This document shows positions 15,553-39,748 of a stretch of DNA of 64,000 bases, piece after piece; within the stretch, counting starts at the first letter, position 1; each line of letters opens with the position of its first letter. The position numbers and the translations under genes are program-made. The notes under the pieces were generated by a model, which saw only the letters and a list, made by a program, of their open reading frames with translations, was not told the DNA's origin and ran no database searches. Location: contig JASFHH010000002.1 of the NCBI GenBank assembly GCA_050123335.1, positions 9,519-73,518 on the forward strand, written 5' to 3'. The stretch is from Gammaproteobacteria bacterium. GTDB lineage: Bacteria > Pseudomonadota > Gammaproteobacteria > UBA12402.

Positions 15553-15647
<95 letters not shown>

Positions 15648-18643: not shown

Positions 18644-18652
18644 TTTTTTTAA

Positions 18653-18786: not shown

Positions 18787-19953
18787 CTAATGGTTTTGCA
18801 GTAATTTAATTAAGTCTTCAATATTGATAAAAGTAACCACAATGTCATCATATTGTTTTTGATAGCTTTCGTTGACGTCAAAGCCTACAACAAAATTTTC
18901 TCCTTTAGGGTAATGCTTGCGAAAAATATGTAAACTTTTGGAGTTAAATGTGTCGGCGCTCCATTTGCATTCAATAGCAATAGGTTCTTTTCGATTACGT
19001 TTTTTGAGATAAATAAAGTCTATTTCATGACGTCTTTTGTCTCTCCAATAGTAAATATTTCTGGTTTGCAAATTACCGTGTAATTCGTTTAATACACAAT
19101 GCTCCCACAACAAACCCATATCATCCGTTCTTAATTTGTGCCAACTTTTAGCATAACAAATCATTCCTGTATCAAAACCATAAACTTTAGGTGCAGAGAT
19201 AATTTCGGAAGGCAGGTGGGAATTAAAAGGTCTAACAATGTGTGCAACAAATGTCGCTTCTAAAACTGAAAGATAATTTGATATTGTTGTTCTGCTAACT
19301 TCACAAGGAGAAGTAAATCTAGTTGCTTCAAAAATATTGCCGCTTTGAGTAAATAATAATTCAACAAATTTTTGAAAAGAATGACGTCGTTCTAATCTAA
19401 ATAATTCTTGAATATCTTTAGCCCAATAGGAATCTATCCATTCGAGAAATTCTTTTTCAGGAAATTCTTTTGACATAAAAAATGGGGGTAAGCCACCATG
19501 CAATAATCGATGTTCAATTTTTTTATTTCCAAAGATTTTAGACTCAGATAATAACATTGGTGTTAACCACAGTTCTGTTTTGCGTCCTGTTAATGTGTCG
19601 CCAAATTTACTGGATGCGCCAAGTGTGGATGAGCCTGTTGCAATGATTTTAATATCCGAAAAATGATCTGCTGCGATTTTTAATAGTTCAGATGGATTGG
19701 TTAATCTATGAATTTCATCCAGTACCAGACGCCCGCCGTTTTTGCTTGTCAAAAATAATTCTGCGTTTTCCATTTGTTTGCGCACGCTAGGAAGCTCACA
19801 ATCGTAGTAATCGACATTATCCAAGCTTCTGCAGAGGCAAGTTTTGCCTACGCGCCTAACGCCAGATAGCCAGAGGATAGATTTTCTTTCCCAGGCTTGT
19901 TCAATTTTATTTTTCCAAAAAATACGTTCTTTCATGGTTTGCTCCAAATGCAA
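18787..19953 (-). CDS. AAA+ ATPase, DUF4143-type
   Basis: Walker A GVRRVGKT; architecture and length (388 aa) are typical of the ATPase/DUF4143 family common in islands. Confidence 0.7.
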   Translation of the reverse strand: MHLEQTMKERIFWKNKIEQAWERKSILWLSGVRRVGKTCLCRSLDNVDYYDCELPSVRKQMENAELFLTSKNGGRLVLDEIHRLTNPSELLKIAADHFSDIKIIATGSSTLGASSKFGDTLTGRKTELWLTPMLLSESKIFGNKKIEHRLLHGGLPPFFMSKEFPEKEFLEWIDSYWAKDIQELFRLERRHSFQKFVELLFTQSGNIFEATRFTSPCEVSRTTISNYLSVLEATFVAHIVRPFNSHLPSEIISAPKVYGFDTGMICYAKSWHKLRTDDMGLLWEHCVLNELHGNLQTRNIYYWRDKRRHEIDFIYLKKRNRKEPIAIECKWSADTFNSKSLHIFRKHYPKGENFVVGFDVNESYQKQYDDIVVTFINIEDLIKLLQNH

Positions 19954-20138
19954 CTATGATTGCATATAGTTTAACTATATGCAACTATAAATGCAAATAG
20001 TTTATCCACTTTTGTCTTAATCAATAACCTCGCGTGTGAGATTCGCGTGATTGGGTTCTCATAAGTTGGCATTTGTACGTGTTTGCAATGGGCATCCGCA
20101 TTTAAAAAATTATTAAAAATCAAAGTATTACGTTTAAA

Positions 20139-20360
20139 TGCGCGTGCTACGAACCAGGCGGTCGGGAGTTTGACAAATCGGCAGGATAGCCGATTTGCAC
20201 AACTTTGCATAGCAAAGTTGCCCGAAGGGCGAGGCACAAGGAAGTGCCGAGTGAAAAAATTGCAGGATTGCAATTTTCGACGTTTTATGCAGCAAAACGC
20301 CTGCAGGGTGATGCGCCATGGAAGGCGCATCATTAATCTCTCCGGGCGCGCTTAGATTCA
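20139..20360 (+). pseudogene. tRNA-Arg-derived pseudo-copy: 5' piece GCGCGTGCTACGAACCAGGCGGTCGGGAGTT + ~170-nt insert + 3' piece TCTCTCCGGGCGCGCTTAGATTCA
   Basis: Both pieces match tRNA-Arg(ACG) plus its immediate 3' flank. The insert shares the AATCGGCAGGATAGCCGATT and GCCCGAAGGGCGAGG-ACA-GGA-GTG-CCGAGT hairpins with the insert at 15750-15833. It also carries AAAAAATTGCAGGATTGCAATTTT. Confidence 0.55.
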
Positions 20361-21667: not shown

Positions 21668-21753
21668 GTGGTTTTATCTGTAGTTTTATTGTCATTTTTT
21701 TTACAAGCATGGTAGATTATAAATAGGATGTTAGCTTAAAGTGGTGGTTATAA

Positions 21754-24537
21754 ATGGAACAGAAATTTTATTGTAGGTTCTTTAATGTTCTTTTGCTGTT
21801 ATTTCTTTTATTGTTTAGTTTGGCTTGTTATGCCAATAAATTGAACAGCATAGCGTTTTATTATGGCAGCAATTTACCAGTTGATGAGTTACGAGCTTTT
21901 GATGTAACAGTTGTTGATCCTGAACAGCATAGTATTTCACCAGCGAAGTTTAATGCATCACATAGCCAAATGTTTGCTTATGTAAGTGTGGGTGAGGTCA
22001 ATCCAGCGCGCAGTTATTTTGCTAAAATATCCAGCAATTGGATCATAGGAGAGAACCCAACGTGGCAAGCCAAAGTTTTGGATCAAAGCAATCCCCAATG
22101 GCGGGATTTTTTTGTAAAGCGCATTATCAAGCCACTTTGGGACAAGGGTTATCGTGGATTTTTTCTGGATACATTAGATTCATATCAATTAGCAGCAAAG
22201 ACTCCGGAAGCTAGAGCCAAGCAAGAGGAAGGTTTAGTAAAATTAATAGAAGCAGTTAAAAAGGAATATCCACAGGCACAATTAATTTTTAATCGTGGAT
22301 TTGAAATTTTGCCTAAAGTGCATAAATTGGTTTATGCCGTCGCAGCAGAATCATTATTTGCTGGTTGGAATCAAGCAGAACGTAAATATGAGCCGGTATC
22401 AGCAGAAGATAGAGAGTGGTTGTTAACTAAGCTGCGGGAAGTTCAAGGGTATAATTTACCTATAGTAGTGATTGATTATGTGGCGCCGGCAAAACGAACA
22501 GAAGCCAGGGAAGTTGCACAAAAAATCATGAAATTGGGTTTTATTCCCTGGGTGGCAGATGCTGATTTGACTAGTTTGGGTATAGGTAGTGTTGAAGTTA
22601 TGCCGCGAAAGATATTGGTTCTTTATGATAGTAACATTACCAAAGATATTATGCAAACTAATGCTTTGATGTATGCAGCAATGCCATTGGAATATTACGG
22701 TTATGTGCCTCTATTTCATGATGTGCATAAGTGGGTGTTACCACAGAAAAGTTTAGCTGGTAGTTATGCAGGTATTTTGTTGTGGACGGGAACTGATTAT
22801 TTATCATTACATAAACAGTTGCAAGATTGGTTGGTTAAACAAAAACAGCAGAATATTCCCATTGTTATTCTGAATAGTTTGGGAGAAAAATTAAGCAAGA
22901 ATTTTACTAATAATTTTGGTTTGGTGATAAAGTCTAAAGCCCCTAGGCCAGCTTCTGTAAAAATAATCAAGAAATCTCCATTAATGGATTATGAAATGCA
23001 ATCTTTTCCTAATCCATATAGTTTTGTTCCCATTAAAAGTTTGCAGGGAACAGTTTTATTGCAATTACAAGATAATCGTGGCGATTTAGCAGATATGGCA
23101 GCGATAACCCCATGGGGAGGATATGTAATACAGCCATTTGTATTAGTTAATTTGCCGAATGAACAGGCCAGATGGATTGTGAACCCATTGCAATTTTTTA
23201 GACTTGCCTTTAAATTACAGCCGCAACCCGTTCCAGATGTAACTACTGAAAATGGTCAGCGTATCATGATAGTGCATGTAGATGGTGATGGTTTTGTTAG
23301 CCGTACTGAATGGAATCCAAAGTTGTTAGATGGTGCAGGGATGTTGCAGGAAATTTTTCAGCACTATGATGTTCCATCAACAGTTTCGATTATTCAGAGT
23401 GAAATAGGTAAAAAAGGTGTTTATCCTAAATTATCAGAAGAAGCAGAAGCGGTAGCAAGAAAAATTTTTCGTTTGCCTTGGATAGAAGTAGCTAGTCATT
23501 CTTTTTCACATCCTTATGTGTGGCAGCCTGAATTAGTAAAAAAATTGCCGAAATACTATAAAACATGGCACCTGCCAGTACCTAATTATAAATTTAATCT
23601 TCAAGACGAGATTACTGGGTCAGTTAAATATATTAATACTGAGTTAGCACCTGCAGGAAAACTTTGCAAAGTTTTTCTTTGGACGGGAAATTGTAATCCG
23701 GGGGCAGCAGCAGTTGCTTTGACATATAAAGACAATTTATTGAATATGAATGGTGGTGATACGGTTATTACTAATAATCAAAAGTCATTAACTAATATTG
23801 CGCCACTTGGAGTTTACAAGGGAAAATATTTTCAAGTATTTGCACCTAATCAAAATGAAAACATTTATACCAATGAGTGGCGTGGTCCATATTATGGTTA
23901 TCGGCGCGTTATTGAAACGTTTAAGCTAACAGATAAGCCATTACGATTTAAGCCGATTGATATTTACTACCATTTTTATAGTGCCTCCAAAACAGCTTCA
24001 TTAAAAGCATTAAAGACAGTTTATGATTGGGCTTTAAAGCAACCAGTAATAAATCTTTATGCTTCAGAGTATATCAATAAAGTGTTGGATTTTAATCATA
24101 TTGCGTTAGCCAAAAAAGATTCTGGTTGGTTGATTAATAGTAGAGGTGAATTGCGTGAATTACGTATTCCACAGTCATTGGGTTATCCAGATTTATTGCA
24201 TAGTACAAATGTAATTGGATTTAGTAGTTACGGTAAAGATTATTATGTGCATTTGGGCACTAAGCAACAGACTATATTACGATTGCAATCACAGGCGCCT
24301 AAAATATCTTATATAGCTGATGCTAATGGATTAATTAGTGATTTTGTTAGGAGTTCTGATGGATTTACTTTTAAGCTAAAAAGTTATACGCCGGCAAAAT
24401 TAAACCTGGCTAATATGCATAGTTGCAAATTATATCAAAACAATCGTTTAATTAGGCCACAAGAAACTGTTACAGGTATGCAAAGTTTTGTATTTAAGGA
24501 TAAAGGCTCATATGCATTTAAGGTTCGTTGTAAATAG
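21754..24537 (+). CDS. pelA: PelA: exported bifunctional Pel polysaccharide hydrolase / CE4 deacetylase
   Basis: N-terminal signal peptide. N-terminal hydrolase domain (...WDKGYRGFFLDTLDSY...). Central CE4 deacetylase motifs (HVDGDGF; ASHSFSHPY). 927 aa, comparable to PelA (~950 aa). Followed by pelB-G. Confidence 0.8.
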   Translation: MEQKFYCRFFNVLLLLFLLLFSLACYANKLNSIAFYYGSNLPVDELRAFDVTVVDPEQHSISPAKFNASHSQMFAYVSVGEVNPARSYFAKISSNWIIGENPTWQAKVLDQSNPQWRDFFVKRIIKPLWDKGYRGFFLDTLDSYQLAAKTPEARAKQEEGLVKLIEAVKKEYPQAQLIFNRGFEILPKVHKLVYAVAAESLFAGWNQAERKYEPVSAEDREWLLTKLREVQGYNLPIVVIDYVAPAKRTEAREVAQKIMKLGFIPWVADADLTSLGIGSVEVMPRKILVLYDSNITKDIMQTNALMYAAMPLEYYGYVPLFHDVHKWVLPQKSLAGSYAGILLWTGTDYLSLHKQLQDWLVKQKQQNIPIVILNSLGEKLSKNFTNNFGLVIKSKAPRPASVKIIKKSPLMDYEMQSFPNPYSFVPIKSLQGTVLLQLQDNRGDLADMAAITPWGGYVIQPFVLVNLPNEQARWIVNPLQFFRLAFKLQPQPVPDVTTENGQRIMIVHVDGDGFVSRTEWNPKLLDGAGMLQEIFQHYDVPSTVSIIQSEIGKKGVYPKLSEEAEAVARKIFRLPWIEVASHSFSHPYVWQPELVKKLPKYYKTWHLPVPNYKFNLQDEITGSVKYINTELAPAGKLCKVFLWTGNCNPGAAAVALTYKDNLLNMNGGDTVITNNQKSLTNIAPLGVYKGKYFQVFAPNQNENIYTNEWRGPYYGYRRVIETFKLTDKPLRFKPIDIYYHFYSASKTASLKALKTVYDWALKQPVINLYASEYINKVLDFNHIALAKKDSGWLINSRGELRELRIPQSLGYPDLLHSTNVIGFSSYGKDYYVHLGTKQQTILRLQSQAPKISYIADANGLISDFVRSSDGFTFKLKSYTPAKLNLANMHSCKLYQNNRLIRPQETVTGMQSFVFKDKGSYAFKVRCK

Positions 24538-24583
24538 TGTTTTTGATTTTAGAATGACTTTGATTTATTAGGAGGATAGAGTT

Positions 24584-25570
24584 TTGCAGGGAATACTGAT
24601 GAGGAATTTTGCGAGATTTGTTTTATTGTTTTGTTCATGGTTGTTTTGTGTTGTTTGTAATGCAAGTGAAGTACATAGTGTCGCATTCTGCTATAGTTAT
24701 AATCCGCCGATTGAAAGACTAAAACAGTTTCAAATTGTTGTGGTTGATCCGGATAGTAAATTAAATCCAAAAAAATTTAATTCTGATCATAGACAAGCTT
24801 TTGCATATGTTAACATTGGTGAGATACACCCAAGCAGGTGCTATTTTGCAAAATTACATCCAAAATTATGGTTATGGGGAAATCCTTACTGGGGGTCTAT
24901 GATTTTAGATCACAGTAATCACAAAACGCGTGCATTTATCATGAAGCATGTTATTGCACCAATATGGGATAAAGGTTATCGTGGATTTTTTCTTGATGGG
25001 TTAGATTCGTATAAAATTGTTCCTTATTTGCGTCAAGAAAGTAAAGTGCAGCATGAAGGAATATTAAGAATTATCTTAGCGATAAAGCATAAGTATCCAG
25101 AAGCTAAAATTATTTTGAACAGAGGTTTTGAGTTTTTGCCGAAAATCCATCATTTTGTTTATGCTGTTACAGCTGAATCTGTTTTTGCTGCCTGGAATCC
25201 CAAGGATAGAATTTATGAGAAAGTTCCTTTTTTTTATCGTCGGCTCACTGTTAGAAAATTAAAGCAAATAAAAGATAAATATAAATTACCAATTATAGTT
25301 ATTGATTATGTGTCACCTGAACAAGTTAATCGAAGCAATTTAATTGCTCACGAGATTCGTAAATTGGGTTTTATTCCATGGGTAACTGATTGGAAATTAT
25401 CTATGATTGGTGTTGGTAATAAGTATAATAATTTTATTACATCAAATTATACTCGAAAGTCAAAGAAAGGTTACATGTTGGAACGGTTTTATCCCTATTT
25501 TTATAGTAGCATCTTAAAAAAAATATATTTAAGATGGGGTACATTATTTTTTTATAAGATAAAAAATTAA
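24584..25570 (+). CDS. PelA N-terminal glycoside-hydrolase-domain paralog (stand-alone, 328 aa)
   Basis: Collinear similarity to residues ~30-300 of the upstream PelA (FAYVNIGE..., WDKGYRGFFLDGLDSY, LNRGFE, IDYV, LGFIPWV). Has a signal peptide but lacks the deacetylase half. Confidence 0.6.
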   Translation: MQGILMRNFARFVLLFCSWLFCVVCNASEVHSVAFCYSYNPPIERLKQFQIVVVDPDSKLNPKKFNSDHRQAFAYVNIGEIHPSRCYFAKLHPKLWLWGNPYWGSMILDHSNHKTRAFIMKHVIAPIWDKGYRGFFLDGLDSYKIVPYLRQESKVQHEGILRIILAIKHKYPEAKIILNRGFEFLPKIHHFVYAVTAESVFAAWNPKDRIYEKVPFFYRRLTVRKLKQIKDKYKLPIIVIDYVSPEQVNRSNLIAHEIRKLGFIPWVTDWKLSMIGVGNKYNNFITSNYTRKSKKGYMLERFYPYFYSSILKKIYLRWGTLFFYKIKN

Positions 25571-25609
25571 GCCATATTTCGAGTAACAGAAATGAGATAA
25601 AGGTCACGT

Positions 25610-26530
25610 ATGCGTTTATGGTTCGCTGCAAGAGATAGAGATAAACATTCGATTAAAGCTAAATTTGCTGCCTGGTGGCAAATTTTGGGGTTTATAGTGG
25701 TAGCTGTTATTTTATTACTATTTTTTTTTCCTAAAGAAGGTATTTTAGGTAACATTGCCCAACAAAGAGAAGCAGATAGATTAGCTAAGCTTTATTTGCA
25801 AAATTTAGTTGACTTATATCCTGGTAATAAGCAGTTCCATATATTGTTAGCTGAACAAAATGTCAGAGCAGGCGAGGTTGTTGAAGCAGTTAAACAGGTA
25901 CTCCCTTTTGTGGTTGTAGAACCAAAAACCAAGACTGATTGGCATGCTTTATTAATTTATTACAAGATTGTACGCATTGAGACTTATAGTAAACCGCGAC
26001 TGAGTTATGCGCGAACTAGAGGTATGCAAAAAATGCAACAGTTGCTGGAGGTTTTATTAAAAGGCAATTTTGCTGCATTAGATATGTTAATGTTGGCTCA
26101 AGATGCGGTAAAATTAAATCGAATTGACACTGCATTAGCGGCTTATAATAAAATAACTGCAGTGCCACCCGCTGCATGTGTTAGTCGTGATATGCAGATG
26201 TGTTTAGCGTTATCTGTAGATGGTGCAAAATTTATGTTATCACAAAGCAAATATAAAGCTGCTGCACAATTATATTTTCTAGCACAATTAAATAGTACAA
26301 GTTTAGCTGATAAACGGTTGTATTTTATTAATGGATTGAAGTGTTTGCAATCAGGTAATATGTTGGAAGATGCTATGCAAGCTGCTCAAAAGCATATTGG
26401 TAGTTTAGCGCATGATAAAAAAACATTAGTTTTTTTAACACGTCTAGCGTTAATGTCGAACGAGCCTAAATTAGCGCAACAATATATTCGGCGGGCTTTG
26501 CAATTAAAACAGCAGGTTACAAAGCCATAA
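25610..26530 (+). CDS. pelB: PelB N-terminal module (membrane-anchored TPR protein)
   Basis: An N-terminal TM helix is followed by TPR-like helical repeats. The stop overlaps the next ATG (TAATG). Confidence 0.55.
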   Translation: MRLWFAARDRDKHSIKAKFAAWWQILGFIVVAVILLLFFFPKEGILGNIAQQREADRLAKLYLQNLVDLYPGNKQFHILLAEQNVRAGEVVEAVKQVLPFVVVEPKTKTDWHALLIYYKIVRIETYSKPRLSYARTRGMQKMQQLLEVLLKGNFAALDMLMLAQDAVKLNRIDTALAAYNKITAVPPAACVSRDMQMCLALSVDGAKFMLSQSKYKAAAQLYFLAQLNSTSLADKRLYFINGLKCLQSGNMLEDAMQAAQKHIGSLAHDKKTLVFLTRLALMSNEPKLAQQYIRRALQLKQQVTKP

Positions 26531-29439
26531 TGAGTAACAATATATTAACAAATTTAATTTTTATTTTTTTATTTTTCTTAGTAGGTTTTTTTTGCTTACC
26601 TGGTTACGCGCAAAAAAATAATTCCTCAGCTTTGACAACTGTCAAAAGTGTTGATAATAAGTCACAAACCTTATTGATTAGTTATGATCCGCAAATTTAC
26701 TTATTGGCCTATCAAACTTTTTTGGCGAATAAAAATATTAAACATGCATACCTTATTGCTAAAGCGGCAGTTGCGCAACGGCCGGATGATGTTGATTGGC
26801 GAAGGCGCTTTGCTCAAGTGGCTTCCTGGTATGATAAACCTAAAGTTGCTTTACAGCAGTGGGTTTATCTAGCTGAGTATAAGAAAGATAGAGAAGCTTT
26901 TGATAAGGCAATTACAATTGCTCACATGCTGCATGACAATCAGCTTTTAGCAAAATTATATAATTTAAAAATAGAATATGGATATGGTTATCAGGATGCT
27001 TGGAAAGGATATATAACCGCGCAAGAATCTTTAGGGGAACCGGAGAAAGCAATTCAAAAGTTGAAAAAAATTATTGCTGAAAAACCAACTCTTTATAATC
27101 TTGAACAATTGGGAGCTCTTTATAATGCAACTGGTAATACTGCAGAAGAATTAAAAACTTTACAAACTATCAAAGAGAAATTTGGTATTTTGCCAAAAAA
27201 CGCATTGCGTCAAGCTGAAATTTTATATTCTCATGGTAAAGTTAAAGAAGCACATACAGTACTTATGACAGCAGCAAGTAAGGCTAAAGATGAGCACCAT
27301 GAGTTTTGGCAAGCTTTTGGGCAATTAGCATGGATGTTGCAAGATAAAAAGAATGCTAAATTAGCTTACACAAAATTACACGAAGCTGGAAAAATAGATC
27401 AGGGAGCTTTAATAAATTATATTCAATTAATGGAAGCTAGAGATAAGCAAGAAGCGTTTAAGCTGTCAATTCAAGGTTGGAATCAATATCATGATAATTA
27501 TTTTATTACCCAGGTAATTTCTTTAGCACCAGAATTGCAAGAATGGAATAGGCTAGCTACTATTCTCGGTGGTTTATCAACAGAAACTAAACAATATTTG
27601 GCGCAGCTGCCTTATTATTATGCAGTACAAGCACGACTTTTTGCACATAATGGTGAATCACAACAAGCATTTAATATTTATCGTCAGGCATTGAAAAAAT
27701 TTCCTGAAGATGTTGATTTGAAAATTGATTATTTGTGGTTTTTAATTGATTATCAATATAAAGCACAGTTACGTTTAACTTTGTATTTATGGCAATATCA
27801 GGCAATGAATGATATGAAATTTATTCCTGCATATGCAGCAGGTTATATTATGCTGCAACAACCACAAGATGCTTTGGTATTGTTGCAATTACAGTTTGCA
27901 CAGAAACAACAGGATTATAATTGGTTAATTAATGTGGCGGACACTTTAGATCAAGTTAATCGTCCTATTGATGCAACACGCATGCGACAATTAGCCTGGT
28001 ATTGGTTATTGGTTGCAAATACGCGTAAATTTGTGCCAGCTACCAGAAAGAATGTTGTTGATTTTGCCCGAGTTGCTATGTATCAAGCGCCTGGTAATAT
28101 TACTGCGCAAACTGTAGCACAACTTTCGCAATATGCTAGTAATCAAGAGGCAGATATTGTTTTGCTGACTTGGGCATTGCAATTGGATGAATATCAATTA
28201 GCTGATTATGCTTGGAACTATTACGGTATAAATCAAAAAATTTCGCCATGGATTCAGCAGACTATAGCATTACAAAATAATGATCGCTATCATTTAGCTC
28301 AATTATTGCAGGATGAGCTTGATAAATTGCCGTATCGTGATCGAGTTATCGCAGCTAAACGTATCGGACAAGATCGTTTAGCACAGAAATTGGCTTATCA
28401 AGGGTTACAGGAGCATCCTACTGATTCGGAAATGTATGATTTGATGACTACAACTCAACTAATTGCGGCTGACAAGATTCAAATTATTCCCGCATATCAA
28501 GAAATAGGCTCAATTCGTGGATTCAAGTCGCATTTATCTGGGAGATTTTTTGTTAATCCCAGAGTTAGTGTTATGCCATGGATAAATGCTTGGCGGACAA
28601 GAACTAATGATGCTAGCATTATTTTGCCTGCTACGAATGTTGATCGTGATGCTGGAATACAGATTAATCGGCGTTATAGTCATGGGCTTTTAAGCGCTAA
28701 TATAGGATATCGTGACGCATTAGCTGGTTTTATCAGCGCAGAATTGACAGGTTCTTATAGATTTACCAGCAAGTTGTTTACTATTATGACATTAGGCTAC
28801 AATCAGCGGGCAGATGAAAGTACAGCTTTATTAATTGCGGGCATGAAGGATGAGGCAAAACTAGAATTTAGTTATCAAATGCAACCGCGTGATTCATTGT
28901 ATGGAGCAGTTTCATATCAGAATTTTAAATCGCAGGATGATGTTTATTTAGGCAATGGTCATATGGCTGAAGTTAGATATACGCATAAACTTCAATTTGC
29001 TTATCCAGATTGGAATGTTAGTGTGTTTTCAGATATTCAGCGTTATCAGCATAATGGCAGGGTTAGTTCACGAGCTAGTAAAGTTATTCCGGAAGGTACA
29101 GCTGCTGAAGTATCTTTTTTTGTGCCGCTAAATTCTATTCGTTATGGTGCTAGTATAGGGTTTGGTCAGGGTTATTTTGAGCCTTATAGATATGATATTA
29201 AGAACTTGGATTTAGGACAAGAATATAGTGAGCCTTATACCCATGCCTGGCGGCCTTTTGGAGAAATAAACATATTTAATAATACTAGATTTGGTTTTGG
29301 TTCATATATAAATATTGGTATTGCAGGACATGTGTTTGGCCGTGATCACTTAGCGATATATTATGAGCGAGGTGTTAATGTGGAGGCTTCGAATCAAAAA
29401 GATTATATTATTGCTGCGAGTTATCAGTTATACTTTTAA
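26530..29439 (+). CDS. pelB: PelB C-terminal module (TPR repeats + C-terminal outer-membrane beta-barrel porin)
   Basis: Own signal peptide, a long TPR region, and a C-terminal beta-strand-rich region with alternating aromatic residues ending in ...SYQLYF (terminal Phe typical of OMPs). 969 aa. Confidence 0.7.
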   Translation: MSNNILTNLIFIFLFFLVGFFCLPGYAQKNNSSALTTVKSVDNKSQTLLISYDPQIYLLAYQTFLANKNIKHAYLIAKAAVAQRPDDVDWRRRFAQVASWYDKPKVALQQWVYLAEYKKDREAFDKAITIAHMLHDNQLLAKLYNLKIEYGYGYQDAWKGYITAQESLGEPEKAIQKLKKIIAEKPTLYNLEQLGALYNATGNTAEELKTLQTIKEKFGILPKNALRQAEILYSHGKVKEAHTVLMTAASKAKDEHHEFWQAFGQLAWMLQDKKNAKLAYTKLHEAGKIDQGALINYIQLMEARDKQEAFKLSIQGWNQYHDNYFITQVISLAPELQEWNRLATILGGLSTETKQYLAQLPYYYAVQARLFAHNGESQQAFNIYRQALKKFPEDVDLKIDYLWFLIDYQYKAQLRLTLYLWQYQAMNDMKFIPAYAAGYIMLQQPQDALVLLQLQFAQKQQDYNWLINVADTLDQVNRPIDATRMRQLAWYWLLVANTRKFVPATRKNVVDFARVAMYQAPGNITAQTVAQLSQYASNQEADIVLLTWALQLDEYQLADYAWNYYGINQKISPWIQQTIALQNNDRYHLAQLLQDELDKLPYRDRVIAAKRIGQDRLAQKLAYQGLQEHPTDSEMYDLMTTTQLIAADKIQIIPAYQEIGSIRGFKSHLSGRFFVNPRVSVMPWINAWRTRTNDASIILPATNVDRDAGIQINRRYSHGLLSANIGYRDALAGFISAELTGSYRFTSKLFTIMTLGYNQRADESTALLIAGMKDEAKLEFSYQMQPRDSLYGAVSYQNFKSQDDVYLGNGHMAEVRYTHKLQFAYPDWNVSVFSDIQRYQHNGRVSSRASKVIPEGTAAEVSFFVPLNSIRYGASIGFGQGYFEPYRYDIKNLDLGQEYSEPYTHAWRPFGEINIFNNTRFGFGSYINIGIAGHVFGRDHLAIYYERGVNVEASNQKDYIIAASYQLYF

Positions 29440-29481
29440 TAATTAGGAATGATTTGTATAGGCAAATTGGGGGTAAATGAA

Positions 29482-30033
29482 ATGAAAAAGCTAAGATATT
29501 TCTTGATTATGATGATATCAGTTTTATTGGTAAGTTGTGCAACCACTACCATTACTGGTTCTCAAAAAATACCGCTGGTGCATGTTGGAGTTAATTGGGG
29601 TGTAATTCCTATGGTTAATAATACTCAAACGCCACAGGCTGGCGAAAAAGCAGCTACAATTACGGCAGGCATATTACGTGCAACTAACATACGTAAAGTT
29701 ATTATTTATAAACAACGGGTATCATGTAGTAAAATTTTAGCTTGCCCACAACAACAACCGTCAATGTATAAAGTTAGAACGTGGGCAAGAATGAACCATA
29801 TTCGTTATGTTATGATGGGTACAGTTAATGAATGGCGTTATAAAGTTGGTTTAGATGGCGAGCCAGCTGTTAGTGTAGATTTAAATTTGATAGACATGCG
29901 TACAGGCAAAATAATTTGGAATGCTGTAGGTAGTAAAGTTGGAGGTAGTCGGGGTAGTTTGGGGGTTATTGCTCATCAGTTAATTGCGGAGATGTTGTAT
30001 AATTTGATTACAGTAAATAATTGCATTAATTAG
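29482..30033 (+). CDS. pelC: PelC lipoprotein
   Basis: Lipobox LLVSC after a signal peptide; ~180 aa; lies between pelB and pelD. The start is at the ATG after a GGGGG RBS; the track ORF begins 33 nt earlier. Confidence 0.7.
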   Translation: MKKLRYFLIMMISVLLVSCATTTITGSQKIPLVHVGVNWGVIPMVNNTQTPQAGEKAATITAGILRATNIRKVIIYKQRVSCSKILACPQQQPSMYKVRTWARMNHIRYVMMGTVNEWRYKVGLDGEPAVSVDLNLIDMRTGKIIWNAVGSKVGGSRGSLGVIAHQLIAEMLYNLITVNNCIN

Positions 30034-30141
30034 TAATAAGGATTGAGGGTGGAGGTTCCGGATAAATATTACGCATTTCTCGGGATGTGATTATTAAACA
30101 TGCGTTAAAGGATGTATTAGGATTAAGGGGTTATTTAAGGT

Positions 30142-31485
30142 GTGGTGAAGAAATTTAGCTATAGAGATAGATTATTATATAGGGCCAAAGGATTTTGGCC
30201 CTATGTTGAAGCAGTTGTGATTACTGTAATAATTCTTAGTATTTCTTATATTTTTAATCGGGAAGATCCTCTTTGTCTTCAAAGTTCTTTTCCATGGGTT
30301 TGGTTCGCACCAGTTTTGGTTGCATTGCGTTATGGTACCTTGGCAGGTGCATTTTCCATTATTATTGTGTTATTGGCTTTATTTCAATTAGAACCTAAGG
30401 GGGAGTTGCTAGAGATAGTACGTTATCGCTATTTCATGCTTGGGGGAGTATTACTAACAGTTTTGTGTGGCGAGTTTAATAATGCTTGGCTTAATTCGAT
30501 GAAACGTTTTGCGCAATTAAATCAATATGTGCACAAACGTTTAGATGGTTTGAATAGAGCATTTTATTTAATACGGTTATCGCATGATAGATTAGAGCAT
30601 AACTTAATTAGTAAAACAGTAACTTTGCGCAGTACCTTTAATGATTTGTTTCGTTTACTTGTTGCTGCCAAAGGTGAGCTAACAGTAGAAATCGCTGATC
30701 GTTTTATGCATCTATTGGATCAACATTGTGCTATGGAAGCTGCTGCATTATATCGTTATCAAGATGGGAAGTTTATTACTGAACCTATTGCACATATTTG
30801 GGCTGACAGGCCATTGCTAAATCCAGATGATATTATGGTACAACATTGTTTGCAGCATCACGGAGTTAGTTATTATGCGGCTAATCAGTTACAGAGAGAA
30901 CAGCAAAGTGATTACTTGGCAGCAATAGCAATGCGTACTAATGAAGATGAGTTAGTAGGTATATTAACTATTACAGATATGACGTTTTGGTCTTTAAATG
31001 AAGAAACTTTACGTGAATTAAGTGTATTGTTGTCTTATTTTGCTGATGGTATTTGGGCGATTAAAGTATCGCCAGAAGTATTGCAAGCTTATCCCGATTG
31101 TCCACCAGAATTAGCAGTAGAAATGCAGAAGCTTATTCGTTTGAAGCGTGATTATCGAGTTGACAGTGCGTTCGTGGCTTTTGTAATAGAACATAATGAT
31201 TTGCGTTATCGTAATATTGTTATGCAGTTGCAACATATGCGTCGTGGGGTGGATACTTGTTGGCATCATCAGGAGAAGCAGCGTGATATTTTATTTACTT
31301 TAATGCCTTTTTCACCACCCGTGGCTGTGGAAGGATATCGCGCGCGTTTTGCGCGTTATTTGCAGTCAGAATTTGGCATTAAAATCGATGAGCATAAGGG
31401 AGTTTATTTTAGATATTTGCAAATTTTTGCTGCAACGCCGTTACAGATTATTCAACAATTGATGGAATATGTGAATGCAAAATGA
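30142..31485 (+). CDS. pelD: PelD, c-di-GMP receptor (TM + GAF + degenerate GGDEF)
   Basis: N-terminal TM helices; 447 aa (PelD is ~455 aa). Position in the operon supports the call. GTG start. Confidence 0.7.
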   Translation: MVKKFSYRDRLLYRAKGFWPYVEAVVITVIILSISYIFNREDPLCLQSSFPWVWFAPVLVALRYGTLAGAFSIIIVLLALFQLEPKGELLEIVRYRYFMLGGVLLTVLCGEFNNAWLNSMKRFAQLNQYVHKRLDGLNRAFYLIRLSHDRLEHNLISKTVTLRSTFNDLFRLLVAAKGELTVEIADRFMHLLDQHCAMEAAALYRYQDGKFITEPIAHIWADRPLLNPDDIMVQHCLQHHGVSYYAANQLQREQQSDYLAAIAMRTNEDELVGILTITDMTFWSLNEETLRELSVLLSYFADGIWAIKVSPEVLQAYPDCPPELAVEMQKLIRLKRDYRVDSAFVAFVIEHNDLRYRNIVMQLQHMRRGVDTCWHHQEKQRDILFTLMPFSPPVAVEGYRARFARYLQSEFGIKIDEHKGVYFRYLQIFAATPLQIIQQLMEYVNAK

Positions 31486-32392
31486 TTTGTTATTTTTATC
31501 GATCAATGGTTTGATTAGTTTTATATTAGCTAATGTGTTATGGCTTGTATTGCCAAAAAATTTGCAACGTCCAAGATTGGCAATAATTCTTTTATTCTTT
31601 ATATTAAGTGCTTTTATACCTGTAATTGGCGCAATATTTCTGGTGTTATTGACGGTGTTATCTTATTGGTTTGTTAGAGAAAGGCCAGGAAGATTTATAA
31701 GTGTAATAGAACGGCCAATTTTTTTAAGGGAGAAAATTACTAAACCAATTGATTATGGTGAAGGTGGGGCTTGGATGCGAATGCGTTCTGATTCTGCTTT
31801 AACCTCTAACAGGTTGCAGGCTATGGTTGCAGTGAATTTTGCTAATGTGGCTTTAGTTAATCGATTGAATAGTGAAATGTTACATGAAAATAGTGATGAG
31901 TTACGTTTGTTTGCTTTTAGTTTGTTGAATGAACAGGCAGTTAAGTTAGATAAATGGATTAGTGAAAATCAAAAAGTGTTAAAGCAACAAGAATTATCCC
32001 AGTTAGAACGTGCGCAAACTGAAAAACGATTGGCATTTTTATACTGGGAATTGGTTTATCAGAATTTAGTGCAAGATGATTTATTAAATTATATGTTAAG
32101 CAAAGCGTTGCAGTATACTTTAAGTGCAATAGAACAATTGCGTGAAGATTTGGGGTTATGGGTTTTATTGGGGAAAATTTATTATCGTAATCGGGACGAA
32201 AAACAGGCGGTGGAAGCGTTTTCTATGGCGTTGCGGTTGAGAGCCCCTTATGAAAATGTGCTGCCTTATTTGGCGGCAATTAATTTTAAACATCGAGATT
32301 ACCCCCAACTTAAAGCAACCTTAAGTAAGGGCAAAACTTTAACAGATGTTCCTAGATTGTGGGAAGTAGTGCAATTTTGGGGTGGAACATGA
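31475..32392 (+). CDS. pelE: PelE (inner-membrane TPR protein)
   Basis: Two N-terminal TM helices followed by a TPR-like helical C-terminus; 305 aa. Position between pelD and pelF supports the call. Confidence 0.65.
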   Translation: MQNDLLFLSINGLISFILANVLWLVLPKNLQRPRLAIILLFFILSAFIPVIGAIFLVLLTVLSYWFVRERPGRFISVIERPIFLREKITKPIDYGEGGAWMRMRSDSALTSNRLQAMVAVNFANVALVNRLNSEMLHENSDELRLFAFSLLNEQAVKLDKWISENQKVLKQQELSQLERAQTEKRLAFLYWELVYQNLVQDDLLNYMLSKALQYTLSAIEQLREDLGLWVLLGKIYYRNRDEKQAVEAFSMALRLRAPYENVLPYLAAINFKHRDYPQLKATLSKGKTLTDVPRLWEVVQFWGGT

Positions 32393-33909
32393 TTGGTGAA
32401 AATTATCCACGGGCAAAAGAAGCAGATATTGCACTTTTAATGGAGGGTTCATATCCTTTTGTTGTTGGTGGTGTTTCACATTGGACGCACCAAATAATAA
32501 ATGCTTTTCCGCAATTTAAATTTGCGGTTATTTTCATTGGTTCTAGTCCAGAAGATTATAAAGAAGGAATGCGTTACCAATTACCTAAAAATGTAGTGCA
32601 TTTTGAAACCCATTATTTATATTCAACCCAAGAAGATTTCATTGATGTTAAAAAACTGCAAAATAAATCGTTAGTGTCGTTTAATTTATTGCAAGATTTT
32701 TTAGCTCAACATAATGGGCAGATTGCAGATAGATTTCACGGGTTGGATTTTCATATTGATGTCGATTCTCATGTTAAATATGAGCATTTCTTTTATTCCA
32801 AACCATCTTGGGATTTTATTGTAAATAATTACACTAAATATTGTACCGACCCATCATTTATTGATTATTTTTGGAATATTATGAATATTCAACGACCATT
32901 ATGGCAGATTGCCTCAATTGTTGAGGATTTTATTAAGGTCAAAATGGTGCATACTGTTTCTACTGGTTATGCTGGTTTTTTTGGGGCGTTGTTGAATTTT
33001 TATCATCATTATCCTTTGGTTTTGACGGAACATGGTATTTATACCAAAGAACGGCGCATTGAATTATTACAAACGAAATTAATTGGGGAAGATGATCAAA
33101 CTCAAAGATTTGCAACAGAAATGGGTTATATTCGCAATTTATGGATACGTTATTTTGATTTGTTAGCGCGTATTTGCTATGAAGTTGCAAATCCAATTAC
33201 TAGTTTATTTACTTTGGCAAGAGATAAGCAAATTGAAGAAGGCGCGCAACAGGAAAAAACGACAATTATTCCTAATGGAATAGATATTGCGAAATTTAGT
33301 AAATTGCGTGCATTGAGAGAAGAAAAAATTCCTTCGATATTATGTTTAATTGGTCGGGTAGTATCAATTAAGGATGTAAAAACGTTTATTCGGGCGATGA
33401 ATGTTGTAGTACAACATATACCAGAGGCACAAGGTTGGATAGCTGGTCCTGTGGACGAAGAGCCAGAATATTTTCAAGAATGTAAGAATTTAGTTACAGT
33501 TTTAGAATTGGAAGATCATGTCAAGTTTTTCCCTGGCAGACAGGATGTAACTAAAATATTTCCGCGGATTGGTTTAATGATGCTAAGTTCTATTAGTGAA
33601 GGAATGCCGTTAGTTCTCTTGGAAGGTTTTGCTTCGGGTGTGCCTGCAGTTGCTACTGATGTGGGTGCGTGTCGCGAATTAATTTTTGGTAGAGATGCGG
33701 AAGATAAAAAACTAGGCGCAGCAGGAGAGATAGTATATATCGCTAATCCACAAGCTTTAGCTGATGCTGCGGTAAGGTTGTTGCAAAATCCTAAGAGTTG
33801 GCAAAATGCACAACATGCAGCGATAGCTAGAGTAGAAAAGTATTTTGATCAACAACAGATGTTTGCAAAATTTAAATCAATATATGAAAAGGTTTTGCAG
33901 GGAGCCTAA
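32389..33909 (+). CDS. pelF: PelF, GT4 family glycosyltransferase
   Basis: GT4 motif EGFASGVPAVATDVGACRELI; ~506 aa. The ATG overlaps the pelE stop (ATGA). Confidence 0.85.
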   Translation: MIGENYPRAKEADIALLMEGSYPFVVGGVSHWTHQIINAFPQFKFAVIFIGSSPEDYKEGMRYQLPKNVVHFETHYLYSTQEDFIDVKKLQNKSLVSFNLLQDFLAQHNGQIADRFHGLDFHIDVDSHVKYEHFFYSKPSWDFIVNNYTKYCTDPSFIDYFWNIMNIQRPLWQIASIVEDFIKVKMVHTVSTGYAGFFGALLNFYHHYPLVLTEHGIYTKERRIELLQTKLIGEDDQTQRFATEMGYIRNLWIRYFDLLARICYEVANPITSLFTLARDKQIEEGAQQEKTTIIPNGIDIAKFSKLRALREEKIPSILCLIGRVVSIKDVKTFIRAMNVVVQHIPEAQGWIAGPVDEEPEYFQECKNLVTVLELEDHVKFFPGRQDVTKIFPRIGLMMLSSISEGMPLVLLEGFASGVPAVATDVGACRELIFGRDAEDKKLGAAGEIVYIANPQALADAAVRLLQNPKSWQNAQHAAIARVEKYFDQQQMFAKFKSIYEKVLQGA

Positions 33910-33912
33910 TTT

Positions 33913-35283
33913 ATGGCAGGTATTGGATTTGAATTACGTAAATTATTGCGTCGAGGCAGCTATTTAAATATCGCGCGTGCGTATGGTTATGCCGGAATTA
34001 TTAGTGCAGGTCCTTGGGTTATTTCTATTTGTGGTATTATTGCTTTAGATTTTTTAAAATATTTTGATATCACACAAGCGAGTATTATTCAACAGTTTCA
34101 GGTTTCTATTACTTATCTTATAGCTTTAAGTTTAATATTCAGCGGATTTACGCAACATAGTTTTACTAGATATGTTGCTGATCGTTTATTCGAAAAGAAG
34201 TTTGATTATGTAGTTCCTAATTTTAATGGGGTATTGTTAGTATTAACAGCTGTGAGTGGTTTATTTGGATTTATTTTAGCTAACGTATTTTTTTTGCAAC
34301 AGGATTTTTATTTTCGTTTATTTATGAGTGGTTCATTTGTTGTGCTATGTAATATTTGGTTTACTACTAATTTACTTTCTGGTTTGAAAAATTATCGTTC
34401 TATATTATTAGCTTTTTTTGTTGGTTATAGTATATCTGTGTATTTAGGTTATCTATTACGTTTTCATGGTTTAGATGGTTTGCTGGGCGGTTTTTTTGTC
34501 GGACAATTTGTTTTATTAGCAGGCATGTTAATAATTTTATATTATTACTATCCATCCAATCGAATCATTGATTTTGATTTTTTGCGTCCAGGAAGAGTTT
34601 TTTTTACTTTGGTTTTTACTAGTTTATTTTACAACTTGGGGATTTGGGTAGATAAATTTATTTTTTGGTATTCTCCTTTAACTAGTCATTCAGTTTTGGG
34701 TCCTTTACATATATCTGTTATTTATGATTTACCGATTTTTCTTGCGTATTTAGCAATTATTCCGGGGATGGCTATTTTTTTGTTCCGCGTAGAAACTAAT
34801 TTTGTAGAATATTATAATTATTATTATGATTCTGTTCGTAATGGCGATACTTTGTTTAATATTATTGGAGCTAGATATCAAATGGCTGATGCGGCACGTC
34901 AAGGTATATTTGATATTATACGAATTCAGGGGATAACTATTTTTACTATATTTATCTTGGGGCCAAAGTTGTTATCGTTTTTACATGTATCAAAACATTA
35001 TATATATTTGCTTAATATAGATATAGTTGGTACGAGTTTGTTAGTTATTTTTTTGGCTTTATTGAATTATATGTTTTATTTAGATCGGCGTGTAAGCGCA
35101 TTAGTTTTAAATGTGTTATTTTTTGTTTTTAATGCGATATTAACTTTGTGGACTATTCATCTTGGAGTTTTTTACTTTGGTTATGGTTTTGTATTAGCTT
35201 TGTTATTAGTTAATGTTATTGCAGTTTTAATATTAAATCATGATTTTGATAATTTAGAATATATTACTTTTATGCGGAAATAG
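33913..35283 (+). CDS. pelG: PelG, polytopic membrane exporter (MATE/PST-like)
   Basis: 456 aa (the same length as PelG), ~12 predicted TM helices. Last gene of the operon. Confidence 0.8.
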   Translation: MAGIGFELRKLLRRGSYLNIARAYGYAGIISAGPWVISICGIIALDFLKYFDITQASIIQQFQVSITYLIALSLIFSGFTQHSFTRYVADRLFEKKFDYVVPNFNGVLLVLTAVSGLFGFILANVFFLQQDFYFRLFMSGSFVVLCNIWFTTNLLSGLKNYRSILLAFFVGYSISVYLGYLLRFHGLDGLLGGFFVGQFVLLAGMLIILYYYYPSNRIIDFDFLRPGRVFFTLVFTSLFYNLGIWVDKFIFWYSPLTSHSVLGPLHISVIYDLPIFLAYLAIIPGMAIFLFRVETNFVEYYNYYYDSVRNGDTLFNIIGARYQMADAARQGIFDIIRIQGITIFTIFILGPKLLSFLHVSKHYIYLLNIDIVGTSLLVIFLALLNYMFYLDRRVSALVLNVLFFVFNAILTLWTIHLGVFYFGYGFVLALLLVNVIAVLILNHDFDNLEYITFMRK

Positions 35284-35425
35284 TTGTGTTTCATTAAGTT
35301 TATATTTGGCTTCAAGGTTTTGTCAAGAAGTACAAAAAAGTAATTGATCCTTCTAAACCTCTGTGCCATACTTACTTTAAATTTAATTAACAACAAGAGC
35401 AACAGCAAGGATTCTGTAATTGAAA

Positions 35426-35459
35426 GGCCTGAGAGGTGGATACTCAGGCCTTTTTTTTT
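35426..35459 (+). terminator. rho-independent terminator after pelG
   Basis: GGCCTGAG-N10-CTCAGGCC hairpin followed by T9. Confidence 0.7.
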
Positions 35460-35486: not shown

Positions 35487-36506
35487 ATGGTAAAAAATAA
35501 ACCAATAGAGAAGCAGGATTGTTATCTACAAATCAAAAATGTTTTAGATGAGGCTAGATCTAAAATTTATAGGCAAATTAACTCGGTTATGGTTCAGGCT
35601 TATTGGAATATTGGAAGAATTATAGTTGAAGAAGAGCAGCAGGGTAAAGCGAAAGCTGGGTATGGTAGCAAATTGCTGGAAAATCTATCAGAAAGGTTAA
35701 CAAAGGATTTTGGTAGGGGGTTCAAGACTAGCAATTTGTGGGATATGCGTAAGTTGTATCTTACTTTTCCAATTCTCCAGGCACTGCCTGGAGAATTGAG
35801 CTGGACGCATTATCGTATCCTACTAAGGGTTGAAGAGGAAAATGCTAGAAATTTCTACCTTAATGAGTGTGCAGAATCTCGCTGGAGTACTAGGGAATTA
35901 GAGCGCCAGATCAATTCTATGCTATTTGAGCGATTGGCTGCAAGCAAAGATAAAGCCAAGGTCAAAGCTTTGGCTGAAAAAGGGCAGATTATTCAGATGC
36001 CAAGTGATGCTATCAAAGATCCGTATATTTTTGAATTTCTTGGTTGGCCAGAGCAGTATACTTTTTCAGAAAGCGATTTAGAAACTGCTTTGATAGATAA
36101 TTTAAAAGGATTTTTATTGGAGTTGGGTAAGGGGTTCAGCTTTGTAGCTAGACAACAGCGCATTACTTTGGAAAATGATCATTTTTATATTGATTTGGTT
36201 TTTTACAATCGGTTGTTGCGGAATTTCGTATTAATAGATTTGAAATTAGGTAAGCTAACACATCAAGATCTTGGTCAAATGCAAATGTATGTGAATTATT
36301 ATGACCGTATTGTTAAATCAAAAGATGAAGATTCTACGGTCGGTATAGTGCTATGCAAAGACAAAAACGAAACGGTAGCAAAATTTACTTTGCCAGAAGA
36401 TAATAAAAATATTTTTGCATCGAAATACAAGCCGTATTTGCCTACTGAAGAAGAATTGATGCGAGAAATTGAAGCAATTTCGGCGAGGTTGGAAACGAAA
36501 AAATAG
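35487..36506 (+). CDS. PDDEXK nuclease-fold protein, DUF1016/YhcG family
   Basis: The N-terminus is YhcG-like (...YWNIGRIIVEEEQQGK...). The C-terminus has a PD-(D/E)xK-like motif ...IDLVFYNRLLRNFVLIDLKLGK. 339 aa. Confidence 0.7.
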   Translation: MVKNKPIEKQDCYLQIKNVLDEARSKIYRQINSVMVQAYWNIGRIIVEEEQQGKAKAGYGSKLLENLSERLTKDFGRGFKTSNLWDMRKLYLTFPILQALPGELSWTHYRILLRVEEENARNFYLNECAESRWSTRELERQINSMLFERLAASKDKAKVKALAEKGQIIQMPSDAIKDPYIFEFLGWPEQYTFSESDLETALIDNLKGFLLELGKGFSFVARQQRITLENDHFYIDLVFYNRLLRNFVLIDLKLGKLTHQDLGQMQMYVNYYDRIVKSKDEDSTVGIVLCKDKNETVAKFTLPEDNKNIFASKYKPYLPTEEELMREIEAISARLETKK

Positions 36507-36661: not shown

Positions 36662-37594
36662 ATGGCAAAGATAAGATTTCGTAAAGAGGCAACAAAAAAG
36701 ATCTTTTCACCAGAGCAGCTAGATCTATTAACTACAATTGCTCCCAGTCGTAATTGGCTGATATTGGTCACAATTGCTGTTTTACTTGTTTTTGTTGTTT
36801 TTTGGGGTTTTTTCGGAGCCATACCTACAACGGTAGATGTTAGAGGGATAGTTATCGATGCTGCTGTGAATGATGTTTATGCTCCTGTTACTGGTTATAA
36901 TCAGTCTTTGAATATAAAGCTTGGTGACCAGGTTCATGCAGGTGAGGAATTGTTGAGAATTATTCCGCCAGATTTATATATCAAATTAGTTGCAGTAAAA
37001 TCTCGCTTGGAAAAACAAAGGAATAACCAGAAATTGCAACAGGAGTTAATAAGTATAAATAAGCAAATTATGCAGCAGGCAATTTATGTTATATCTCCTT
37101 ATACCGGCAGGATAGTGGAATTAGACATACAATCTGGAGAATATGTTGATAAACACCAATTGTTATTACGCATCGAGCGTTTTCAGACAGATGCTGCTGG
37201 TTTGCATGCGATATTATTCGTTTCACCAATCGAAGGTAAACGTATAAAAACGGGAATGAAGGTGCAGCTGGCTCCTTCAACAGTACGTCCTGAGGAGTAT
37301 GGTTATCTTTTGGGAAAAGTCAGCTATGTTTCAAAGTATTCAGTAACATCATTTGATATAGTAAATATTTTGGGAAATAGAGATTTTACCAAAGCATTCT
37401 CAAGAGGTTTAATGCCTTTAGAGGTAAGGGTAAAGCTTATTCCTGATTCAAAAACGCAATCTGGTTACAAATGGTCTTCTTCTAAAGGACCACCGATTCG
37501 GATAGATTCGGGTACTTTTTGTATGGGTAAAGTTATTATTGGTCGAATCAGACCGATAAATCTCGTGCTTCCTGCTTTAAGGGGGGCGTTTTGA
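36662..37594 (+). CDS. HlyD-family membrane fusion protein of an NHLM-type bacteriocin export system
   Basis: N-terminal TM anchor, biotinyl/lipoyl-like beta-hairpin and coiled coil; 310 aa. Lies immediately upstream of two bacteriocin-type ABC transporters. Confidence 0.65.
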   Translation: MAKIRFRKEATKKIFSPEQLDLLTTIAPSRNWLILVTIAVLLVFVVFWGFFGAIPTTVDVRGIVIDAAVNDVYAPVTGYNQSLNIKLGDQVHAGEELLRIIPPDLYIKLVAVKSRLEKQRNNQKLQQELISINKQIMQQAIYVISPYTGRIVELDIQSGEYVDKHQLLLRIERFQTDAAGLHAILFVSPIEGKRIKTGMKVQLAPSTVRPEEYGYLLGKVSYVSKYSVTSFDIVNILGNRDFTKAFSRGLMPLEVRVKLIPDSKTQSGYKWSSSKGPPIRIDSGTFCMGKVIIGRIRPINLVLPALRGAF

Positions 37595-37598
37595 ACGA

Positions 37599-39743: not shown

Positions 39744-39748
39744 ATACG

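Follow-up and report, generated by a model that had tools for sequence, protein, structure and literature searches.

The subject of this study is a pel exopolysaccharide operon on contig JASFHH010000002.1 of an uncultured gammaproteobacterium (assembly GCA_050123335.1). The analysed stretch of 64,000 nucleotides (positions 9,519 to 73,518 of the contig) is referred to as the window, and its own numbering is used for all window features. Nine consecutive open reading frames (ORFs) on the + strand fill positions 21754-35283, none of the nine containing an internal stop, and the outer limits are exact, with pelA starting at 21754 and pelG ending at 35283. The initial annotation had placed a complete operon at precisely this span, which proved correct. 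It had counted seven collinear genes, however, whereas nine ORFs are present, the additional ones being another gene for a PelA-type hydrolase (24584-25570) and one that encodes the N-terminal part of PelB separately (25610-26530). The genes follow the order pelA, pelA2, pelB-N, pelB-C, pelC, pelD, pelE, pelF and pelG, and their products contain, where indicated, transmembrane (TM) segments and tetratricopeptide repeats (TPRs):

21754-24537, + strand: pelA, periplasmic Pel hydrolase (GH166) and deacetylase (CE21) with signal peptide, 927 amino acids (aa)
24584-25570, + strand: pelA2, stand-alone PelA-type hydrolase with signal peptide and without the deacetylase part, 328 aa with the TTG start at 24584 or 323 aa with the ATG start at 24599
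25610-26530, + strand: pelB-N, N-terminal module of PelB with one TM helix and about seven TPR-like repeats, 306 aa
26530-29439, + strand: pelB-C, remainder of PelB with its own cleavable signal peptide, TPRs and a C-terminal beta-barrel porin, 969 aa
29449-30033, + strand: pelC, outer-membrane lipoprotein forming a ring around PelB, 194 aa, the likely true start being ATG 29482
30142-31485, + strand: pelD, predicted inner-membrane receptor of cyclic di-GMP (c-di-GMP) with TM segments, a GAF domain and a degenerate GGDEF domain, 447 aa
31475-32392, + strand: pelE, inner-membrane protein with two to three N-terminal TM segments and a C-terminal TPR region, 305 aa
32359-33909, + strand: pelF, cytoplasmic glycosyltransferase of family 4 (GT4), the polymerase, 516 aa, with a probable start at ATG 32389
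33913-35283, + strand: pelG, polytopic inner-membrane protein of the synthase complex, 456 aa

The genes are tightly packed. The pelB-N stop and the pelB-C start share 1 nt in a TAATG overlap, pelD and pelE overlap by 11 nt, and pelE and pelF overlap in an ATGA, provided that pelF starts at ATG 32389. The gaps between pelA2 and pelB-N and between pelF and pelG measure 39 and 3 nt, respectively. The overlapping TAATG and ATGA junctions that had been annotated were thereby located at pelB-N/pelB-C and, with the same proviso on the pelF start, at pelE/pelF. Two further features flank the genes:

21668-21753, + strand: intergenic region, candidate promoter with two overlapping sigma-70-like matches (21689-21718 and 21700-21729, each 9/12)
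35422-35459, + strand: intrinsic terminator after pelG, made of GAAAGGCCTGAG, a 9-nt loop, CTCAGGCCTTTT and a T run

The terminator has a 12-bp stem followed by U9 and a folding energy of -18.6 kcal/mol (z=-4.27 versus shuffled sequences, with 0/200 shuffles folding equally well). A pattern scanner overlooked it because of the 9-nt loop. The strong terminator annotated 3' of pelG was thereby confirmed. Genes for a methyltransferase and a GNAT protein lie upstream on the same strand and could be co-transcribed with pel. We considered both as possible parts of the pel system and rejected them, as they are not kept beside pel in the loci of relatives.

Identity of the gene products

We have compared the products with protein families, solved structures and pel loci on related contigs (L001-L006, L008 and L010, with L008 being the metagenome-assembled genome (MAG) SP151, labelled Legionellales). 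A profile scan of genome contigs for pel returned two loci.

PelA residues 31-892 matched the solved PelA structure 9cgy_A (E=3.9e-166) in a sequence search of the PDB. The hydrolase domain retains the equivalents of D160 and E218 (FFLDTLDS and AVAAESLF) and the deacetylase domain retains the metal/base motifs HVDGDG and HSFSH, equivalent to D528/D530/H600/H604 (DxD and HxxxH) of Pseudomonas aeruginosa PelA (PaPelA), the roles of these catalytic and metal-binding residues being taken from PMC12022489. In Pfam, the hydrolase domain matched the model named GH114, and the deacetylase domain was without a match in Pfam and NCBIfam. PelA had been annotated as a hydrolase with a CE4 deacetylase. Both domains are indeed present with their active sites kept, and it is the CE4 name that is outdated: the deacetylase domain has a CE4-like fold and is now the founding member of CE21, with the hydrolase domain belonging to GH166 (PMC12022489).

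The architecture of PelA differs among the related pel loci. In L001 (3537-9136), a tandem of two full-length pelA-like genes encodes proteins of 879 and 925 aa, the 689-aa PelA of L008 (981-3050) lacks the hydrolase domain, and in L010 (10001-15272) the hydrolase part of pelA is fragmented into small ORFs, with a stand-alone hydrolase and an epimerase encoded upstream of this pelA.

PelC matched P. aeruginosa PelC (PaPelC, 9h80_C) over its full length (E=4.1e-29) and its lipobox, LLVSC, aligned with the PaPelC lipobox cysteine, which confirmed its annotation as a lipoprotein. In PelD, the PelD_GGDEF domain (PF16963) scored 102 bits and the protein matched the P. aeruginosa PelD (PaPelD) structures 4euv and 4dn0 (E=7e-15). 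Its RxxD I-site reads RGVD and aligned with RGLD of PaPelD (R367/D370), and the arginine equivalent to R402 is also present. The family domain and the retained I-site residues are consistent with the c-di-GMP receptor function that had been proposed for PelD.

Neither PelC nor PelE matched a model in Pfam or NCBIfam, and the PDB sequence search gave no deciding match for PelE. Hydropathy placed the PelE TM segments at residues 8-67, and TPR matches were found at 210-276. The gene occupying the same pelD-pelF interval in L001, L003, L005 and L008 encodes a protein with 30-44% identity. This layout and position fit the annotated TPR inner-membrane protein, and it is on architecture and position that its naming as PelE is based.

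PelF scored 648 bits against the NCBIfam equivalog NF038011 (cutoff 100), covering the full profile. It also matched DUF3492 (281 bits) and Glycos_transf_1, and the equivalog score upheld its annotation as a GT4 enzyme. PelG matched Pfam PF16933 with 471.5 bits over profile positions 1-452/452, has at least ten hydrophobic segments (12 TM segments had been annotated) and is named "exopolysaccharide Pel transporter PelG" by NCBI. The full-length family match supported the annotated identity.

The features that define the family were thus found for PelA, PelC, PelD, PelF and PelG and in the domain content of PelB. It could be argued that the locus encodes another synthase-dependent polysaccharide system resembling Pel, such as those for poly-N-acetylglucosamine (PNAG; pga), cellulose (bcs) or alginate (alg), as TPR-porin exporters and periplasmic deacetylase or hydrolase enzymes are common to all such systems. 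However, the nine products include no glycosyltransferase family 2 (GT2) synthase of the PgaC, BcsA or Alg8 type, the sole glycosyltransferase being the GT4 enzyme PelF. The PelF equivalog, PelG, PelD_GGDEF and the PelB barrel are, moreover, Pel-specific families. We therefore regard the probability of such a different system as practically negligible, in line with the original assignment to Pel rather than to pga, bcs or alg.

The seven functions of the P. aeruginosa pelABCDEFG operon (PA3058-PA3064) occur here in the same order. The two operons share the four-domain PelA with GH166 and CE21 sites, PelC, the PelD I-site, PelF, PelG, and the TPRs and barrel of PelB, although identities to the Pel proteins of P. 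aeruginosa as well as of P. thermotolerans are low to moderate. The window differs from P. aeruginosa in encoding PelB on two genes, with a cleavable signal peptide gained by the C-terminal part, and in having a hydrolase-only PelA paralog between pelA and pelB. Apart from the split PelB and the extra PelA hydrolase, the locus is an ordinary member of a well-known system. With it, the uncultured low-GC gammaproteobacteria gain a well-supported Pel producer, and the current picture of the Pel system stays unchanged.

Division of PelB between two genes

PelB had been annotated as a TPR-porin. The TPRs and the barrel are both present, on two polypeptides rather than one: the domain content of a single-chain PelB (TM anchor, about 19 TPRs and a 16-strand porin) is spread over pelB-N and pelB-C. 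The PelB-C domains TPR_15 and B-barrel_PelB_C scored 190 and 179.5 bits, respectively. A single-sequence PDB search with PelB-N gave no match, and a phmmer search of 1.84 billion representatives gave 472 relatives. These were of two kinds, namely proteins of some 230-320 aa that matched over their entire length and PelB proteins of about 1200-1350 aa matched in residues ~1-300. The two ORFs tile P. aeruginosa PelB (PaPelB): its residues 6-283 (9h80_M) were matched by the PelB-N family profile (E=1.3e-23) and its residues 299-1077 aligned with PelB-C residues 66-846 (E=1.3e-26). The AlphaFold2 model of PelB-N, built on the family alignment (mean predicted local distance difference test score 90.6), has a TM helix at residues 22-39 followed by about seven helical hairpins, and its best Foldseek matches were TPR superhelices.

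These alignments place the fission point near PaPelB residue 285-299. It lies upstream of TPR9-15, the repeats of PelB that dock PelA (PMC12022489). In the fused relatives P0006, P0009, P0011 and P0012 the part corresponding to pelB-N spans residues ~2-300 and that corresponding to pelB-C begins at ~290-370, with P0009 being a fused PelB that matches both window ORFs.

The existence of fused relatives of 1218-1272 aa, together with a 1-nt overlap such as a frameshift would leave, raises the question of whether the split reflects a frameshift introduced by sequencing or assembly, or else a newly arisen pseudogenising mutation, in what is really one pelB gene of ~1270 aa. We consider this very improbable. 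The same split, with overlapping junctions, recurred in L001/L002, L003/L004, L005/L006 and L008, that is, in independent assemblies from different samples, at 24-52% identity. The N-terminus of PelB-C is a canonical hydrophobic signal peptide whose cleavage site is of the YAQ type. Such a signal peptide is common to the other ~950-aa forms, was found at the N-terminus of every short PelB-C form and is absent at the matching position of the fused forms. Among the 150 best representatives of the PelB-N family, 83 are stand-alone proteins of at most 360 aa, and 57/150 have at least 1000 aa. Fission of pelB has also been reported earlier (PMC7112194, in its Fig 5iii). Hence, the pelB split is no artefact of assembly.

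Fission of pelB as such is already known. The pel operons labelled "pelB fission" in Fig 5iii of Bundalovic-Torma et al. 2020 (PMC7112194) resemble the present one in that the fission occurs inside an otherwise canonical operon. As listed there, they belong to aquatic thermophilic species, whereas the split genes described here come from low-GC uncultured gammaproteobacteria and a Legionellales-labelled MAG, and the present analysis defines where the split falls and which signal peptide was newly gained. Alginate AlgK/AlgE, PNAG PgaA and cellulose BcsC similarly combine a periplasmic TPR scaffold with an outer-membrane beta-barrel, with the alginate system using one polypeptide for the TPRs and another for the porin (PMC12022489). 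Unlike in alginate, the break in the window falls inside the TPR array and not between TPRs and porin, and what is detached is an inner-membrane-anchored part, not an outer-membrane lipoprotein.

PelB would accordingly be made as two translationally coupled polypeptides. PelB-N is predicted to be an inner-membrane-anchored module with roughly TPR1-8, and PelB-C an outer-membrane module comprising the PelA-docking TPRs, the alpha-rich region and the porin. With PelB divided in this way, the periplasm-spanning guide would have to form by non-covalent contact or not at all.

PelA2 and the predicted route of the polymer

The second departure from P. aeruginosa, PelA2, matched Pfam PF03537 (69.5 bits) and the crystal structure of the PelA hydrolase domain 5tcb (E=2e-28), and it is 47% identical to residues 24-279 of the window PelA. 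Both catalytic residues are retained (FFLDGLDS and AVTAESVF), and an AGGAGG ribosome-binding site lies 7 nt 5' of the TTG start. A strain from the same metagenome encodes a 324-aa homolog with 80% identity between its pelA and a 306-aa pelB-N, and the distant, GC-rich locus L010 likewise has its stand-alone PelA-type hydrolase in an upstream position. When we asked whether PelA2 is a recent duplicate of the window pelA, a neighbour-joining tree put it alone on a long separate branch. Within-operon pel locus duplications are already in the literature, and pelA2, as a putative within-operon duplication that left a hydrolase-only copy, belongs to this class of reported events.

A decaying remnant of a duplicated pelA, without a function of its own, would be expected to look like PelA2 in some respects. 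The three C-terminal PelA domains are missing, the protein ends in an odd Y/F/K-rich tail, the exact TTG-start sequence is absent from the protein collection, and the tandem full-length pelA-like genes of L001 provide a precedent for duplication. Yet the ORF is intact, with a ribosome-binding site and a signal peptide, the protein has both catalytic residues and 50 invariant columns in common with other PelA-type hydrolases, and the homolog of the related strain has kept the same length and position at 80% identity. As only 39 nt separate pelA2 from pelB-N, there is also no decayed deacetylase sequence left after the gene. Thus, we consider that pelA2 is unlikely to be a remnant.

In P. aeruginosa, the hydrolase activity of PelA yields cell-free Pel, and the enzyme is predicted to be blind to the polymer while PelA is docked on PelB (PMC12022489). 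Because docked PaPelA is predicted not to see the polymer, we propose PelA2 as a free periplasmic trimming or release enzyme. It would be a free PelA-type endo-alpha-1,4-N-acetylgalactosaminidase and probably trims or releases Pel independently of PelB-bound PelA.

The chemistry and control of the polymer can be inferred after P. aeruginosa. Binding of c-di-GMP at the RxxD I-site of PelD would switch on the inner-membrane PelDEFG complex, and PelF would polymerise UDP-N-acetylgalactosamine into an alpha-1,4-linked N-acetylgalactosamine chain that crosses the inner membrane. In the periplasm, the CE21 domain of PelA would partly deacetylate the chain and render it cationic, and the chain would then exit through the PelB beta-barrel capped by the PelC lipoprotein ring.

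Overall, the region is very probably a functional synthase-dependent Pel operon with a nine-gene layout. Several points weigh against this view or parts of it. Expression, polymer production and c-di-GMP binding are predicted here from the genes, and no UDP-GlcNAc 4-epimerase (PelX-like) is encoded adjoining the operon. Shuffled sequence gives sigma-70-like matches at least as often as the region upstream of pelA does. The identity of PelE is supported by its architecture and synteny only, and the non-covalent contact between PelB-N and PelB-C is putative. Finally, the C-terminal tail of PelA2 (~45 residues) is of low complexity and is kept in the closest homolog only.

A broader reading would be that the split PelB is a widespread, selected architecture, with the break between the membrane-proximal guide TPRs and the PelA-docking TPRs, and that pelA2 co-evolved with it as a PelB-independent release or dispersal hydrolase. 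We put this forward tentatively, as it is rather doubtful. In P. aeruginosa, PelB has been proposed to bridge both membranes via its uncleaved N-terminal helix (PMC12141448). If the broader reading were true, Pel export would need no covalent PelB bridge across both membranes, contrary to that proposal, and nature would have provided, in the split PelB, its own test of the trans-envelope model. Naturally split PelB proteins, which are common among metagenomic sequences, could serve as ready-made constructs for asking whether the TPR array has to link the inner and outer membranes and what purpose PelA hydrolase activity has.

History, host and neighbourhood of the operon

The operon had been annotated as probably acquired, a claim for which the support is mixed. 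Tests for foreign origin by GC content, GC content at third codon positions (GC3) and codon usage gave no signal: the pel genes have a GC content of 0.29-0.37 and a GC3 of 0.19-0.29 and, codon usage included, are indistinguishable from the housekeeping genes of the window. Support for the claim came instead from relatives. The sister MAG JASFHF01 shares a closely similar backbone with the window (RecA 98%, AlaS 94%, PriA 91%, M3 peptidase 90% and RecX 86% identity), whereas its Pel proteins are only 44-67% identical, and accessions MGD9153408 and MGD9153523 place both sister contigs in one genome. In a strain with PelG at least 90% identical, gatBAC lies 3' of pelG in place of yhcG and the lanthipeptide cluster. 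Within a few kb of the operon there is also a tRNA-Ser/tRNA-Arg site, and at this site the sister MAG has an integrase.

A non-vertical history of pel has moderate support because of this disparity between backbone (86-98%) and pel (44-67%), with the caveats of possible mis-binning and the lack of a mobile-element hallmark around pel. The opposite view, that the operon is vertical in this lineage and was not recently acquired, with the divergent pel of the sister MAG being due to mis-binning or to an old paralogous locus, would account for the housekeeping-like composition, for the pel of the same type, at least 80% identical, in co-occurring strains, and for the absence of integrase or transposase genes flanking the operon. 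The backbone identities of the sister MAG, the two accessions, the nearby tRNA site and the right flank that differs even between close strains argue against it, and we regard it as a serious possibility with somewhat less than an even chance. A test for a tRNA-integrated genomic island found no integrase and no partial tRNA-Arg copy to the right of pel anywhere in the window.

To the left of pel, partial tRNA-Arg copies are located at 18653 (18653-18676) and 20147-20359. We considered such copies as attR sites of decayed islands and dropped this explanation, as the insert within them weakly matches RtT RNA and is part of a very widespread hairpin element. The stretches 15646-15879 and 20147-20359 contain partial copies of the 3' halves of the adjacent tRNA-Ser and tRNA-Arg genes, interrupted by hairpin-rich inserts of ~95 and ~164 nt, respectively. 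Both inserts enter at the same T-loop position, after TTCGA, and are related to each other. They start with CAAA(A)TCGGCAGGATAGCCGATTT and include GCCCGAAGGGCGAGG. The 21-mer AATCGGCAGGATAGCCGATTT was found exactly in more than 120 metagenome contigs of widely different GC content among the matches listed, and in several of these it occurred again within T-loop or anticodon-loop contexts of tRNAs. The sole Rfam match of the inserts was a sub-threshold one to RtT RNA (RF00391), over the full model (27 bits vs. a gathering score of 45). The inserts appear to belong to a family of RtT-like, tRNA-linked repeat elements that is widespread and uncurated.

The stretch from tRNA-Arg to the methyltransferase gene (15955-20359) encodes a Bro-N protein (15991-16845, - strand), a DUF4143 AAA ATPase (18787-19953, - strand) and a 415-aa orphan with three copies of the short tandem repeat QIIQDTS. 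In the sister MAG (L009), an integrase lies directly 3' of the same tRNA-Arg. The stretch looks like a variable insertion hotspot adjoining the pel operon.

With regard to the host, an AlaS search gave identities above 69% among MAGs only and of ~60% to many gammaproteobacterial groups. Very low-GC (25-28%) orphan genes, all on the - strand, are found at 53134-58308, 4688-5932, 62675-63940 and 6745-8823, and include a 1724-aa ankyrin-repeat protein, an RCC1-repeat protein and one weak ankyrin match. Such eukaryote-like domains typify the effectors of bacteria that associate with protists, Legionellales for example. The ankyrin- and RCC1-repeat proteins fit a protist-associated lifestyle; AlaS and the repeat proteins do not prove the Legionellales-type host suggested by the initial annotation. 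The Legionellales-labelled MAG SP151 (L008) carries a pel locus with a split PelB, and our literature search found no paper linking Legionella to pel. In the supplementary tables of PMC7112194, Legionella and Coxiella appear in S7 Table, from which nothing firm follows on predicted pel operons there.

A parallel exists in deep-branching Rickettsiales that probably live freely (Schoen et al. 2022, PMC9352585): their pel clusters also belong to environmental relatives of host-associated bacteria, and these clusters have been read as a marker of a biofilm-forming extracellular phase (PMC9352585). They differ in coming from Alphaproteobacteria and in being derived, with functional equivalents of PelB and PelE (PMC9352585). 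By the argument made for those free-living Rickettsiales, the organism studied here may combine protist association with an extracellular biofilm phase.

Downstream, the gene for a YhcG-type PDDEXK nuclease with a DUF1016 N-terminal domain (35487-36506) separates the pel terminator from the lanthipeptide transporter genes. The 7.9-kb contig with the identical PelG has this gene, and the variant strain lacks it 3' of pelG. The lanthipeptide cluster itself, of class II, occupies 36662-46759. It comprises genes for an HlyD-type protein and two ATP-binding cassette transporters, one with a C39 peptidase domain (36662-42640), two long precursors (108 and 115 aa) whose leaders are nitrile-hydratase-like and whose C-termini are rich in Cys and Thr (42692-43018 and 43139-43486, - strand), and a LanM synthetase with DUF4135 and LANC_like domains (43541-46759, - strand).

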